The notes under the pieces are model-generated. The model was given only the letters and a program-made list of their open reading frames with translations, made no database searches and had not been told where the DNA came from. Positions 1,356 to 10,389 of a stretch of 10,389 nucleotides of DNA are shown piece by piece (the first letter of the stretch is position 1; each line of letters starts with the position of its first letter). This DNA is from a virus (taxonomy: Duplodnaviria; Heunggongvirae; Uroviricota; Caudoviricetes). A program made the position numbers and the translations under genes. The stretch is from IMG/VR virus record IMGVR_UViG_2636415610_000011; one strand, given 5' to 3'.

Positions 1356-2321
1356 ATGAACGACTCTCATGAAACAACTGCGGTGCATAGAAATTTATGG
1401 CAGGAATCAGGTATTCCACCTTTGGACTACTGCACGATAGAGCGAGCATCAAAATTATTAAATTGTGAAATTGATGATATATGGCATTGGAAAGATAGAC
1501 TACATATAGACTTTTATGTCTATGCTGACTTTCTTGATTTCATTGAAGCTGATGCCGCCATCCACTTCAAAAAAGATGCTGATTTTATAACTGATTTATT
1601 ACTTATGTACCCAGAAGAAGTAAGGTTTACATTTCCTTTTCTTATTACCAGCGCAAGCAACGAAGTTTATATCCCAGCATCTGAAAGCGGTGCTTATGAG
1701 CTATTTTATGCACATAAACCACTGACAGTTGAAGACAGAGACAATAAAAATGTTTTTGAACAAATTGGCAAAAACTCTTTTATTGTAAGAAAATCAATTG
1801 CATGCGGATTGTTGCGTGTACGCGGTAGTACAACACGACATTATCATTCACAAGAATGTGGAGAGCCATATGTGCGACTTGAAGCAACATTTGATTGTGA
1901 TCTATATAAATTCAAAATGCAAAGTTCCCAGATTCACCTGAGTAGCCTGTCAGATAAAAACATTTATATAACAAAGGCTGATTTAGAATATCTTCACGAC
2001 GCAAAGGTTAATGGAAGTTTTGACGCAGCTAAGAGCAAAAAACGATACGAAATGGCGGTAGAACAGGAACTAATACCTGAAATAAAAAATAGCAACCATA
2101 ATGCCGAGAGACATGCTGAAAACAGGGAAAAACTTTTCAAATCAGCAATATATCTTTTGTCAAAGTATCCTGATGAATGCCGTGGCAAAAAGAAAGAAAT
2201 AAGCCCTGAGAAGTGGCGGGATTGCATAGTGGCTCATAAAGACGAAATTCCACCGTTAGCAATCACAAATGAAGATGTGATTTTGAGACACTTACGTGCT
2301 GCCGCCAACGGTAAGGGGTAG
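1356..2321 (+). CDS. Hypothetical protein, lower-GC orphan cargo gene in the int-alpA slot; function unknown
   Basis: 321-aa ORF with RBS AAGGTG (1345-1350) 5 nt before the ATG. GC is visibly lower than the flanking integrase and alpA (by-eye estimate, about 35-40% versus about 50%). Followed by a strong intrinsic terminator, so it is its own transcription unit. No catalytic motif recognised (no Walker A, HNH or obvious HTH). Confidence 0.75.
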   Translation: MNDSHETTAVHRNLWQESGIPPLDYCTIERASKLLNCEIDDIWHWKDRLHIDFYVYADFLDFIEADAAIHFKKDADFITDLLLMYPEEVRFTFPFLITSASNEVYIPASESGAYELFYAHKPLTVEDRDNKNVFEQIGKNSFIVRKSIACGLLRVRGSTTRHYHSQECGEPYVRLEATFDCDLYKFKMQSSQIHLSSLSDKNIYITKADLEYLHDAKVNGSFDAAKSKKRYEMAVEQELIPEIKNSNHNAERHAENREKLFKSAIYLLSKYPDECRGKKKEISPEKWRDCIVAHKDEIPPLAITNEDVILRHLRAAANGKG

Positions 2322-2336
2322 AGTAGCTAACTATTC

Positions 2337-2367
2337 AGGCACAGTATCATTACTGTGCCTTTTTATT
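2337..2367 (+). terminator. Rho-independent terminator after the orphan gene
   Basis: Perfect 9-bp stem AGGCACAGT (2337-2345) / ACTGTGCCT (2352-2360), 6-nt loop ATCATT, then T-tract TTTTATT (2361-2367); starts 16 nt after the stop codon. Confidence 0.7.
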
Positions 2368-2391: not shown

Positions 2392-2432
2392 TCCCGTAAC
2401 GAAGCAACAACTATCGCTAAGAGGTTACGGGA
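2392..2432. promoter_or_regulatory. Inverted repeat overlapping the alpA ribosome-binding site (putative operator or RBS-sequestering structure)
   Basis: TCCCGTAAC (2392-2400) and GTTACGGGA (2424-2432) are perfect reverse complements separated by 23 nt. The alpA RBS AAGAGG (2419-2424) sits at the loop-stem junction and the ATG is at 2436. Confidence 0.35.
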
Positions 2433-3082: not shown

Positions 3083-3916
3083 ATGAACATCGAAAAAAGC
3101 AGATTAATTTCTGAGGCCGCCCCTCATCTGAACGCCTCTCTGGGCACAATTAACGGTAATGAATTTGCCGCAATTGTCCCGGTTATTCCTGGTCATATCG
3201 GTGGGCGTGAAACCAATATTGTTAGCGCAAAAGCGTTACACAAAGCGTTGGGCGTGGGAAAAGACTTCTCTACATGGATCACTGATCGCATCTCTGAATA
3301 TGACTTCACCATTGGGCACGATTACTCAGTCCATAAAACAATTTCCCCAAATTTGGGGAAAAGCCCGAATGGCACGGCTTACAGCAAGATTAAGCACTCT
3401 GGCAGACCCGGCAAAGACTATCTGTTAAGTGTCGGAATGGCGAAAGAACTGGCAATGATCGAACGCAATGATCAGGGGCGCGCTATCCGCCGTTATTTCA
3501 TCCAGTGCGAGGAAGAATTACAGCGTAGCGTGCCTGAAATCGCCGCCCGCTATCGTCGCCAGCTAAAAGCCCGTATCAGTGCCGCAAACAACTTTAAGCC
3601 AATGTGCGATGCGCTGAATATGGCCCGTGCCGAGATGGGGAAAACGACGCAGCAACACCACTACACAAACGAGAGCAATATGATTTCTCGTATCGTTCTT
3701 GGTGGGCTAACTGCTAAGCAGTGGGCGCGGATAAATGGCTATTCTGGCGAACCTCGCGACCATATGAACGCAGAACAGCTTGAGCACCTCTCATATCTCG
3801 AAAGCACCAATATCACGTTAATTGATATGGGCATGGAATATGAGCAGCGCAAAGGAGAACTCACCCGCCTGTCGCAACGCTGGCTCGCTAAGCGTCTGGA
3901 GGCGGTCCATGTTTAA
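3083..3916 (+). CDS. Phage antirepressor-like protein (AntA/Rha/Bro-N-type N-terminal domain)
   Basis: 277-aa ORF with RBS GGAG (3072-3075). N-terminal region NIVSAKALHKALGVGKDFSTWITDRISEYDF...GRPGKDYLLSVGMAKELAMIERNDQGRAIRRYFIQCEEEL matches the conserved AntA/Rha-type antirepressor DNA-binding domain. C-terminal half not recognised. Confidence 0.8.
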   Translation: MNIEKSRLISEAAPHLNASLGTINGNEFAAIVPVIPGHIGGRETNIVSAKALHKALGVGKDFSTWITDRISEYDFTIGHDYSVHKTISPNLGKSPNGTAYSKIKHSGRPGKDYLLSVGMAKELAMIERNDQGRAIRRYFIQCEEELQRSVPEIAARYRRQLKARISAANNFKPMCDALNMARAEMGKTTQQHHYTNESNMISRIVLGGLTAKQWARINGYSGEPRDHMNAEQLEHLSYLESTNITLIDMGMEYEQRKGELTRLSQRWLAKRLEAVHV

Positions 3917-4091
3917 GCCGACAGGAACACCACAACCTCAAAAACGCTACAAAGATGCCCACGGAGCACTCGTTACTGTCGAAAGCGTGTCTCACAACCG
4001 AGTGACGTTTTATCGCGACGGGTATCAATCGCCATGCGTACAACCGCTGGCACGTTTCATGAAGGAGTTCGCGGAGGTTAACAAATGCTAA
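3909..4091 (+). CDS. Small hypothetical protein (60 aa), possibly DUF4222-like
   Basis: RBS GGAGG (3898-3902) 6 nt before ATG 3909; start overlaps the upstream stop by 8 nt (translational coupling). The ORF track's longer 3822 start lies inside the upstream gene and is rejected. Pattern YKDAHGALVTV...RVTFYRDGYQSPCVQPLARFMKEF resembles small DUF4222-type prophage proteins, from memory only. Confidence 0.6.
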   Translation: MFKPTGTPQPQKRYKDAHGALVTVESVSHNRVTFYRDGYQSPCVQPLARFMKEFAEVNKC

Positions 4092-5152
4092 CCGCCCAGA
4101 AGAAGACATTTTCACTGGCTGGTATGTCGCCAAAATCCAGCAATATGACAGCAAAGTCAGGCATTAATACAGCAGATACAAGCAAAGTTTATCATTTGCT
4201 GGTGGTAGGAGCGGATGCCTTAACTATGTCAGAAATTACGGTCGATGGTGTTAGCGTTGAGAAGGTCAGCGGCTGCGCCAGAGAATTTCTGGTCGTAGAT
4301 GGCTTTCTCTGCTCGCGTAGTGACTCCACAAAAACCTTCGTCCACGCGCGTGACGTTAACGAAATGAGCGCGATGTACTGTGCTTCTGGTTCTTCCAATA
4401 GTGAGTTTTCGGAGTCCATAAAAAAGAGCTTGCCGTTATGCGGCAACACGGTTTATGGTTATAAGGCACCTCATAAAACGGGTGCCGGGATTGGCGTCCT
4501 GGTAAATCGAATGGCGACATATGACGCGCCGAGCGTCTTTTTTTATGTCGTAGGTCTGACTCACCCATTTTTTGGGCGTTGGTGTATAATCCAGCGCCTT
4601 TGTCAATCAATGGTGGCTCAGGCAGGGGCTTCTTCGGAAGCGCCGGTATCCATTCGAGCCGGTTACGCCAACCCTGTCTGGGCTACCACCAGCGAAATTG
4701 GCGTTTCCGGTGGTAGCGTTACATGCTATCGAATGGAGGCTGCCACATGCTGGCTACTACCCCTACCCAAAAACCGCAATTTATCTGGATTATCGCCGCA
4801 GTTCGCCGCGATTGCCCGACAATTACCGCCAAAATTCATCATATTGCTGCCGAGTCTGAACGCGATGCTCGCCGTTCTCTGGTGCGCGATCACGTCTGCT
4901 TTTTTGCTGGTCGTATCCGCATGGAGGTGGCACATGATTAAAACCTACGATGTGCATATGGATCCCCTCGAACGCACAAGCCAGATCATCACACTGACAG
5001 AAGTGATTAACGACATTCTGGTGAGCAACTCTCCCTCACGAGACGAAAGACTGAAGGCGTTACTCGCGATATTGGATCTCGCCGTTCGTGACGTTCATTT
5101 CCTGCTGGAAGGTGGCGAAATGCCAGTAAAAACGGGGGAAACCAATGAATAA
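4085..5152 (+). CDS. Stop-free 355-codon frame; probably a composite: a roughly 222-aa gene (4085 to about 4753) that has lost its stop and reads through in frame into the 4934-5152 gene
   Basis: RBS GGAGG (4071-4075) and ATG 4085 coupled to the upstream stop (ATGCTAA). Codon usage read by eye looks coding from 4085 to about 4745 (G-rich first positions, few rare codons). The same frame over 4745-4933 is full of rare codons (CTA x3, TTA x3, GGA, CGA, ATA, AGG) while the -1 frame there has none. An automated gene caller would probably report the whole ORF as one hypothetical protein. Confidence 0.4.
4747..4941 (+). CDS. Small hypothetical protein (64 aa) in the -1 frame relative to the 4085 ORF
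   Basis: RBS GGAGG (4735-4739) 7 nt before ATG 4747. All codons are common enteric codons (CTG, CGC, CGT, ATC, CCG, GCC; no rare codons). Stop TAA (4939-4941) overlaps the next ATG (4934) in the same 8-nt coupling arrangement used elsewhere in this operon. Alternative start ATG 4723. Confidence 0.5.
   Translation: MLATTPTQKPQFIWIIAAVRRDCPTITAKIHHIAAESERDARRSLVRDHVCFFAGRIRMEVAHD
4934..5152 (+). CDS. Small hypothetical protein (72 aa)
   Basis: RBS GGAGGTGG (4923-4930) just upstream of ATG 4934; coupled to the upstream stop and to the downstream start (ATG 5145 / TAA 5150-5152). In frame with, and contained in, the 4085-5152 ORF. Confidence 0.45.
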   Translation: MIKTYDVHMDPLERTSQIITLTEVINDILVSNSPSRDERLKALLAILDLAVRDVHFLLEGGEMPVKTGETNE

Positions 5153-9896: not shown

Positions 9897-10007
9897 GTTG
9901 GTTCAGTTGGTTCAGTTGGTTCAATTTGTAAAGAGTATTGTTTTATAAGGATTTTATTCTTTTTATTGAACCAACACTGAACCAACAACACGGTATTTTG
10001 AACCAAC
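9897..10007. repeat. Iteron array: putative replication origin of the island
   Basis: Three perfect tandem GTTGGTTCA (9897-9905, 9906-9914, 9915-9923), then a 43-bp strongly AT-rich tract (9924-9966), then three inverted copies TGAACCAAC (9967-9975, 9978-9986, 9999-10007) spaced 11 and 21 bp (helical phasing). Lies 26 bp downstream of the primase-helicase stop. Confidence 0.6.
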
Positions 10008-10098: not shown

Positions 10099-10389
10099 TG
10101 AACCGCCCCGGGTTTCCTGGAGAGTGTTTTATCTGTGAACTCAGGCTGCCAGATCATCGTTTCCGATGGAAGCATAATAAGCTTTTTCTGCTTCTGCCGG
10201 TGGGATATGGCCCAGCCTTTCCAGCAATCGTCGATTGTTATACCAGTCCACCCACGTGAGTGTGGCCAGCTCCACTTCTGTCCGGTTTTTCCAGCTCTTA
10301 CGGTGTATTACCTCCGCTTTGTAAAGGCCATTGATGCTCTCCGCCATCGCGTTGTCATACGAGTCACCAGTACTTCCTGTTGATGCCAG
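10099..10389 (-). mobile_element. IS3-family insertion sequence terminus (IS629/IS1203-like), partial, continues beyond the window
   Basis: Terminal sequence TGAACCGCCCCGGG... begins at 10099 (5'-TG end typical of IS3 family) and precedes the 3' end of an rve-type transposase on the - strand. Assignment to IS629 is from memory of its terminal sequence, not a search. Confidence 0.8.
10141..10389 (-). CDS. IS3-family transposase (OrfB, DDE/rve integrase core), C-terminal fragment; 5' end outside window
   Basis: Reverse-strand translation ...LASTGSTGDSYDNAMAESINGLYKAEVIHRKSWKNRTEVELATLTWVDWYNNRRLLERLGHIPPAEAEKAYY... contains the conserved rve C-terminal motif (DSYDNAMAES). Stop at 10141-10143; the frame is open to the window edge. 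Confidence 0.85.
   Translation of the reverse strand: MASTGSTGDSYDNAMAESINGLYKAEVIHRKSWKNRTEVELATLTWVDWYNNRRLLERLGHIPPAEAEKAYYASIGNDDLAA

Follow-up and report, generated by a model that had tools for sequence, protein, structure and literature searches.

The 10,389-nucleotide stretch of DNA analysed here, referred to below as the window, belongs to IMG/VR virus record IMGVR_UViG_2636415610_000011 (Caudoviricetes) and carries an AlpA-type phage satellite of the phage-inducible chromosomal island (PICI), capsid-forming PICI (cf-PICI) or P4-like kind. Between its integrase gene, int, and alpA lies an open reading frame (ORF) for a 321-aa protein, which we call the slot gene. The int-alpA position proves to be a fixed slot in which unrelated genes replace one another between conserved backbone flanks, and an orphan structured RNA, the int-alpA RNA motif (Rfam RF02996), is the fixed leader of this hypervariable slot. 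As to function, we lean, with somewhat less than even confidence, towards the view that the slot gene is the enterobacterial counterpart of the iolg/icg genes of Vibrio satellites, that is, an int-coupled accessory of the integration/excision-induction module and not free-standing cargo.

The features of the locus are all on the + strand. The left backbone flank is the tyrosine integrase gene (1–1260; Pfam Arm-DNA-bind_3, Phage_int_M and Phage_integrase), which is separated from the slot gene by a 95-nt spacer. This spacer contains the RNA motif (1269–1335), directly 5' of the slot gene, and a short stretch of backbone (1336–1355) with the Shine-Dalgarno (SD) sequence AAGGTGA at 1345–1351; the same spacer stands before a different ORF in locus L003. 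The slot gene itself (1356–2321) starts with ATG and encodes WP_001555743.1. Its GC content is 0.375 (0.33–0.38 in 300-nt windows within the ORF) versus 0.496 for int and 0.490 for the 1.5 kb that begin with alpA, which confirms the original prediction of an AT-rich ORF set in flanks of about 49% GC. The intrinsic terminator that had been noticed behind the gene (2337–2366) was likewise confirmed: its hairpin (2337–2360) has 10 pairs, made up of a perfect 9-bp stem GGCACAGTA/TACTGTGCC and one A-T pair, closes a loop of 4 and is followed by a T-run, with a fold of -17 kcal/mol (z = -4.76; 0 of 200 shuffles as good). The right backbone flank is alpA (2436–2639; Pfam Phage_AlpA, E 2.2e-8).

Exchange of the slot gene is seen most directly in E. 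coli islands whose int is 95–99% identical to that of the window (81% in L006) and whose alpA-side flanks are 79–99% identical. These islands carry different slot genes, with products of 316, 281, 293 and 216 aa, and int genes as much as 99% identical stand beside other occupants. About 685 E. coli genomes have this backbone. In L003, identity to the window is 99% up to position 1360 and is found again from 2393; in L005 and L006 homology ends at window position 1359, and after the slot it resumes at 2393 or 2449, depending on the island. Such sharp breakpoints indicate that the exchanged cassette consists of the coding sequence with its terminator, and that the upstream spacer is part of the backbone. 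Most of the other cassettes examined likewise carry a comparable hairpin at their end.

The wider survey used the backbone PM1773-family protein as the query, which avoids circularity, and was made on species-level genomes; it gave 45 loci, 40 of them with an integrase upstream. A co-oriented slot gene is present in 37 of these 40 islands. One co-oriented ORF of 199–374 aa was found in 33 loci (three of these with a second ORF), two small ORFs in four and no credible gene in three, and the distance from int to alpA is about 1.0–1.5 kb in 33 of the 40. The 48 slot proteins fall into 12 blastp clusters, at least 10 of which are credible; one large cluster is mostly Pfam DUF6387, and a DUF6387 gene also adjoins the AlpA gene in the Klebsiella island ICEKp258.2. 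In all 27 loci compared, the GC content of the occupant is more than 5 points below that of its flanks, with a mean difference of 12 points. The suggestion that the position between int and alpA is a variable slot was thus borne out, by at least ten unrelated clusters and by different genes between near-identical flanks. A comparison of related islands with like int and alpA, which had been proposed as a check, showed the slot to be hypervariable, with sharp breakpoints and low GC throughout. The slot therefore has the features of a cargo hotspot: a fixed position, conserved backbone flanks, unrelated occupants and deviant composition.

A helical C-terminal tail seemed by eye to be shared among unrelated slot proteins. 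It was rejected at an hhalign probability of only 0.5–2%, and hhalign detected no homology among the tails of three different slot-protein groups. Two known genes in similar positions were also considered. The 318-aa yfjH, between intA and alpA in CP4-57 of E. coli K-12, is on the opposite strand and shows no homology (BLASTP E 0.43). EcCIMP1_002, which occupies the slot in an E. coli PICI that has been characterised, is small, mis-annotated as 'uvrB' and without a phenotype, and gives no lead.

The spacer upstream of the slot gene matches the full RF02996 model over 1269–1335 with 60.6 bits (gathering score 35.8; E 6.9e-11), and the leader has a fold of -32.4 kcal/mol (z -2.56). The same motif occurs in 15 of 22 further loci (10 of 12 plus 5 of 10), always between the int stop codon and the slot gene. 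It accompanies two integrase clades, at least 53% and about 28% identical to the window integrase, and precedes slot genes unrelated to one another. The outer stem pairs about 1271–1279 with 1317–1325, and compensatory changes were found in 8 of its 9 pairs across 15 loci. In each of the 16 loci that have the motif, the window among them, an ORF follows directly, and the three loci that have no slot gene lack the motif as well. The motif is followed by an SD sequence, AAAGGTGA or GAGGTGG, and in 13 of the 16 loci the start codon lies 14–20 nt past it; in the remaining three the script chose an earlier GTG, and by eye the ATGs of L019 and L026 are at similar distances. To our knowledge, RF02996 is a motif from comparative genomics to which no function has been assigned, and we found no functional study of it or of DUF6387 in the literature searched. 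What is added here is a position more precise than 'between int and alpA': the start codon of a hypervariable gene follows the motif at a distance of 14–20 nt. Pairing of the leader with the C4 or isrK RNAs of the island was tried and rejected, the duplex energies being no better than those of shuffles (z about -1). The SD sequence of the slot gene (within 1336–1355) appears to form the loop of a short hairpin with a stem of 4 bp, GCGT..ACGC, and in the other integrase clade ACGC..GCGT stands at the same site.

These signals bear on the expression of the gene, which the original prediction had taken to be independently transcribed. That view is not supported: no sigma-70-like promoter site was found in the spacer (1261–1355), and the backbone RNA leader and SD are common to unrelated occupants. 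Co-transcription with int appears more likely from the sequence, because the spacer has no promoter-like site and the Pantoea gene begins only 11 nt after the int stop codon. The corresponding distance is 11 nt in L064 and 41 nt in L066, and the E. coli gene for the 216-aa slot protein overlaps int by 4 nt. At its other end, the terminator of the cassette insulates alpA from the slot gene. As a transcription unit, then, the gene has its own terminator, no consensus promoter that could be found and an upstream leader that belongs to the backbone.

A second hairpin of the backbone, at 2392–2432 (+), lies just 5' of the alpA ATG at 2436, within the conserved flank that resumes at 2393, and has the arms CCCGTAAC-N23-GTTACGGG. 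Two of its 7 pairs show compensatory changes among 10 loci. Other lineages have a different hairpin at this site, with the SD within its 3' arm. The hairpin could hide the ribosome-binding site of alpA as RNA, or could be an AlpA operator as DNA.

The slot gene had been described as an orphan, a label that did not hold. Identical or near-identical proteins, annotated 'hypothetical protein', are encoded in about 77 complete E. coli chromosomes, and full-length homologs with 57–72% identity come from Salmonella, Enterobacter and Cedecea; with copies in so many chromosomes and full-length homologs across genera, the gene is real. The family comprises 48 clusters at 90% identity. Every named member is from Enterobacterales; most are about 280–320 aa long, and none has a functional name or a Pfam domain. 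The order int, gene, alpA on one strand holds for every member examined, across several genera and four insertion sites. An alignment of 26 family sequences (A1) has 27 invariant columns. A decaying or functionless insert, merely carried along with the island, might be AT-rich and without a known domain, as this gene is, and the slot ORF is indeed split or missing in some related loci. However, the 321-aa ORF is intact and unchanged among many unrelated E. coli strains, its full-length homologs keep 57–72% identity across genera together with the 27 invariant columns, and the SD and leader are conserved as well, so that we consider this explanation very improbable.

Three parts can be distinguished in the protein. 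The N-module (residues 17–58; 1404–1529) is conserved to a moderate degree in the family alignment. The middle (residues 59–244; 1530–2087, about 190 residues), which includes the start of a long helix, is hypervariable, with at least four versions that do not align with one another. The C-module (residues 245–321; 2088–2318) is basic, helical and near-invariant, and holds most of the invariant columns. The AlphaFold2 model of the whole protein has a mean predicted local distance difference test (pLDDT) score of 69.9. It shows a beta-alpha-alpha-beta unit at residues 25–57 (pLDDT 82–92), a beta-rich middle, a long helix at 224–270 and a small helical domain at the C-terminus. In this model the N-module resembles the winged helices of the MerR family and of Xis/AlpA, the winged helix being a fold of recombination directionality factors. 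Yet the protein differs from those families: the Pfam models MerR, MerR_1 and HTH_17 gave no match even at E <= 1, there was no match to Phage_AlpA, and the putative recognition helix is acidic. Unlike in MerR proteins, a beta-rich domain of about 150 aa is predicted between the winged helix and the long helix, and the protein, at 321 aa, is far larger than excisionases. The N-module has a pI of 4.6; the long helix and the C-module have pIs of 9.0–9.5, that of the C-module being 9.0. No catalytic motif was seen in the protein, and we expect it to work by binding.

Searches with the slot protein against Pfam, NCBIfam, PHROGs and PADLOC profiles gave nothing significant; a sequence search of the PDB gave no match, and neither did tblastn against 50,697 phage genomes. 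Structure prediction followed by a fold search, as the original prediction had advised, was no more productive, as Foldseek returned nothing below E 0.1 from PDB and BFVD. With the C-module as the query, only 30 representatives were retrieved among 1.84 billion proteins. One of these is a low-complexity artefact and a few are short fragments; in the genuine full-length matches the module is at the C-terminus. An N-module profile run against 5.8 billion proteins retrieved only short fragments and no informative fusions. No paper mentions any of the six slot-protein accessions that were searched in the literature.

Within the slot, the N-module hidden Markov model matches 13 proteins, whereas the C-module matches six strongly and that of L003 weakly; the N-module is thus joined to several different C-terminal regions. 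The N-terminus of the L005-type protein aligns with the N-module in hhalign (61.5% probability, E 8e-5), which suggests, at the sequence level, that it is a diverged N-module. A further N-module, complete with the preceding NIW motif, is clear in the 273-aa WP_071177718.1 of Klebsiella pneumoniae (NZ_CP129740.1; L061:4986-5807), which has an unrelated body; its gene is solitary, flanked by a WbuC cupin gene and cynR, and has neither int, alpA nor the int-alpA RNA nearby.

The N-module goes with one type of integrase. It is present in 9 of 13 surveyed loci with an integrase of the window clade, a count that includes two L005-type proteins related through hhalign only, versus none of 27 with the other clade. 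Part of this pattern could be due to physical linkage. In L015 the PM1773-family backbone protein is 98% identical to that of the window, while int (29%), alpA (33%) and the slot gene (DUF6387) all differ. Int, leader, slot gene and alpA therefore seem to have been exchanged as one module, with the junction between alpA and the next gene.

The closest precedent for such an arrangement comes from the PICMIs of Vibrio, minimalist chromosomal islands that are phage-inducible (Barcia-Cruz et al., Nat Commun 2024, PMC10803314), in which the gene between int and alpA is called iolg if it overlaps int and icg if it is contiguous with it. These genes belong to 13 unrelated families of unknown function and are absent from three elements (PMC10803314). 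They are expressed constitutively with int, whereas alpA is phage-induced (PMC10803314). Deletion of iolg from PICMI115 abolished excision and transfer, and an Int-IOLG-AlpA excision complex was proposed by the authors (PMC10803314). The slot gene fits this position, lying between int and alpA on the same strand as int and drawn from many unrelated families (13 in PICMIs, at least 10 here). As in the PICMIs, few elements are without a gene, and the terminator and leader suggest that here, too, the gene may not belong to the alpA regulon that phage induces. In one E. coli slot type the gene overlaps int by 4 nt, exactly as iolg does; unlike iolg, most loci have no overlap and instead have the 95-nt structured RNA leader from int to the gene. 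The likeness is one of position and pattern.

If the slot gene is the counterpart of iolg/icg, the following mechanism can be proposed. In the resting island the gene would be transcribed together with int and expressed via the int-alpA RNA leader and SD, and its terminator would keep this transcription out of the phage-inducible alpA operon. The putative winged helix and the basic C-module would dock the protein onto DNA or onto the Int-AlpA recombination complex, and the hypervariable middle would give specificity for a helper-phage or host factor, so that the protein might gate or assist excision. A role in excision is proposed here for the enterobacterial elements solely by analogy with PICMI115, the single element in which such a gene was shown to be required for excision. 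What the slot adds to the analogy is its regularity: a co-oriented gene in 37 of 40 islands, a single ORF of 199–374 aa in 33 of them, an approximately constant distance and no significant PADLOC match together suggest that the occupants fill a required, equivalent function.

Several observations weigh against this interpretation. The PICMI excision result was obtained with one Vibrio element and an unrelated protein, and the PICMI115 deletion overlaps int. Different slot proteins, some of them without an N-module, are found beside 99% identical int and identical alpA alleles, which is hard to square with a specific partner of the recombination complex. The acidic N-module is atypical of a helix-turn-helix (HTH) that contacts DNA. 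In L025 both the slot gene and the RNA leader are absent, and yet the island still has alpA, isrK, C4 and the primase gene. The lone N-module protein of the Klebsiella chromosome has neither int nor alpA beside it, and the low GC in all 27 loci is the usual signature of exchangeable cargo. Finally, alpA of EcCICFT073 was induced by helper phage on a reporter plasmid that carried no other island genes (PMC6092414).

Many of the same observations speak for the main alternative, raised by the original prediction, in which the slot gene is an autonomous 'moron' in a satellite hotspot. It would then encode a single-gene anti-phage or exclusion factor that is not an enzyme and is produced while the island rests, and its variable middle would recognise some component of a phage that invades or of a rival element. 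At least ten unrelated clusters share the slot, their cassettes have sharp boundaries, low GC and mostly their own terminators, and the gene is outside the alpA operon. The contrast of a hypervariable middle with conserved ends points to an arms race, L025 shows that the slot can be dispensed with, and an N-module protein occurs by itself in Klebsiella. There are precedents in the fixed, integrase-adjacent hotspots of P2 and of P4-like satellites (Rousset et al. 2022, PMC9122126) and in the immunity loci of PICIs (PMC11364771, with Fillol-Salom et al. 2022 as cited therein), where defence genes are found between conserved flanks, the occupants are unrelated and AT-rich, and expression is expected in the resting element. 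These hotspots differ, however, in holding systems of very varied size and gene number, many of them recognisable (restriction-modification, retrons, TIR, Abi), whereas the slot mostly holds one co-oriented gene of about 1 kb behind a shared RNA leader. A check for known defence families that had been recommended for the gene came back negative: in PADLOC-DB v2.0.0 the slot protein gave only PDC-S31 (E 0.002, 15.5 bits, residues 183–266), short of the cut-off of E <= 0.001, and none of 15 other slot proteins gave a significant match, the best being JetC at E 0.0016. Moreover, no enzymatic or membrane effector is recognisable, and the C-module family was never found outside the slot and had no match in the 50,697 phage genomes. 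In the literature consulted, the validated defence genes of PICIs are elsewhere: they lie between att and int, or else at the 3' end or beside pri (PMC10085698, PMC11364771), as with Tai, which adjoins pri (PMC11364771). Positive evidence for defence was thus not found, and a defence role would be a guess from sequence; we regard the moron explanation as possible but doubtful. If it were a defence factor, the protein would represent a new non-enzymatic single-gene system, and the slot a reservoir of at least ten further candidates.

A second alternative is suggested by Stl of the Staphylococcus aureus pathogenicity islands (SaPIs), which also lies between int and the lytic regulator, is highly divergent among elements and combines an N-terminal HTH-type fold with a variable domain that binds a helper-phage protein. 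A slot protein of this kind would be a master repressor and sensor that binds DNA upstream of alpA and silences the island until a helper-phage protein binds its variable domain. The predicted MerR-like N-terminal fold and the modular, variable, sensor-like middle would suit such a role, and the global repressor of Gram-negative PICIs is described as 'unclear' and the inducer as unknown, alpA being an activator turned on by an unidentified helper-phage factor (PMC6092414). There is also a 14/16 palindrome, TGTTCATATATGTACA, at 2367–2382 within the cassette. It was considered as a cassette-borne operator upstream of alpA and rejected, having a counterpart in L002 and none in most other cassettes. 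Stl, for its part, is a proven DNA-binding repressor transcribed divergently from str/xis, whereas the slot gene is co-directional with alpA, has a terminator in between and encodes an acidic N-module without a Pfam HTH or MerR match. Unrelated slot proteins pair with identical alpA and alpA-leader sequences, L025 persists without a slot gene, and the island has an RNA-based immunity module of its own (C4 and isrK, as in P1/P4). Together with the reporter-plasmid induction of EcCICFT073 alpA, these differences make a Stl-like repressor quite unlikely.

The slot gene represents a new family, and the kind of position that it occupies is known. A broader model can be put forward as a speculation that we consider improbable: the int-alpA RNA and the slot would be a platform that expresses interchangeable, AT-rich, int-coupled sensors, each for a different helper-phage or host factor, and these would license excision by Int and AlpA. 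If true, the platform would be the long-sought Gram-negative functional counterpart of Stl that acts at the recombination complex and not via transcriptional repression, and RF02996 would gain its first function. Helper-phage sensing by Gram-negative satellites, and the cooperation of Int, AlpA and the int-adjacent gene in excision, are regarded as open questions (PMC6092414, PMC10803314). For such work E. coli offers a tractable model in this locus: the putative docking ends are conserved and the middle can be swapped, alleles have been exchanged naturally between flanks that are otherwise nearly identical, and a conserved RNA leader stands exactly at the cassette junction. Whether the outcome is excision or defence, the int-alpA RNA motif would gain a biological context.

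The island is carried, for example, by E. coli UMNK88 and cq9, and in cq9 it lies downstream of yicC. The order there is int, slot gene, alpA, PM1773-family protein, AntA, DUF4222 and Ash-family ORF, then six small ORFs and a Toprim/DUF927 primase; Salmonella relatives have capsid and protease genes downstream. In the window, isrK RNA (4466–4543, +; 67 bits) and C4 antisense RNA (4606–4693, +; 79.5 bits) were identified with Rfam, along with a weak c4-a1b1 match at 4453–4505. IsrK and C4 form an RNA immunity module of the P1/P4 type, a pair that is conserved in most related loci. Both lie inside a 355-aa ORF (4085–5152) that RefSeq calls 'ash family protein', and the 5' part of this ORF is therefore probably over-called.

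Several minor features of the island and its relatives may be recorded. The C-terminal half of the AntA-domain protein (3083–3916, +) matches the PADLOC candidate family PDC-S22 (E 4.3e-11), so that satellite backbone genes may be the source of some 'candidate' families in PADLOC. Directly after the primase gene, an AT-rich stretch contains three tandem copies of GTTGGTTCA (9897–9923) and, 45 nt downstream, an inverted copy, TGAACCAAC, at 9967–9987; these repeats may be origin iterons. Near the right end of the island, a 68-aa ORF on the minus strand (10141–10347) looks by eye like the C-terminal end of an IS3-family transposase and may be an insertion sequence remnant. A circular 21.8-kb K. 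pneumoniae 'plasmid' (L060, CP031371.2) carries an X-like gene, alpA, an antirepressor gene and DUF4222 in satellite order; the record probably represents a satellite in its excised, circular form that was submitted as a plasmid. In cq9, a gene for a 'reverse transcriptase family protein' has been inserted among housekeeping genes, between slmA and pyrE (L001:8882-9841) and some 3 kb upstream of the island, and may be a retron-type element. Downstream of the cq9 primase (L001:23374-27742) are genes for DUF2824, a 'phage DNA ejection protein' and a truncated 'injection protein'; EcCIMP1 also has virion-related genes in common with its P22-like helper (PMC11773190).

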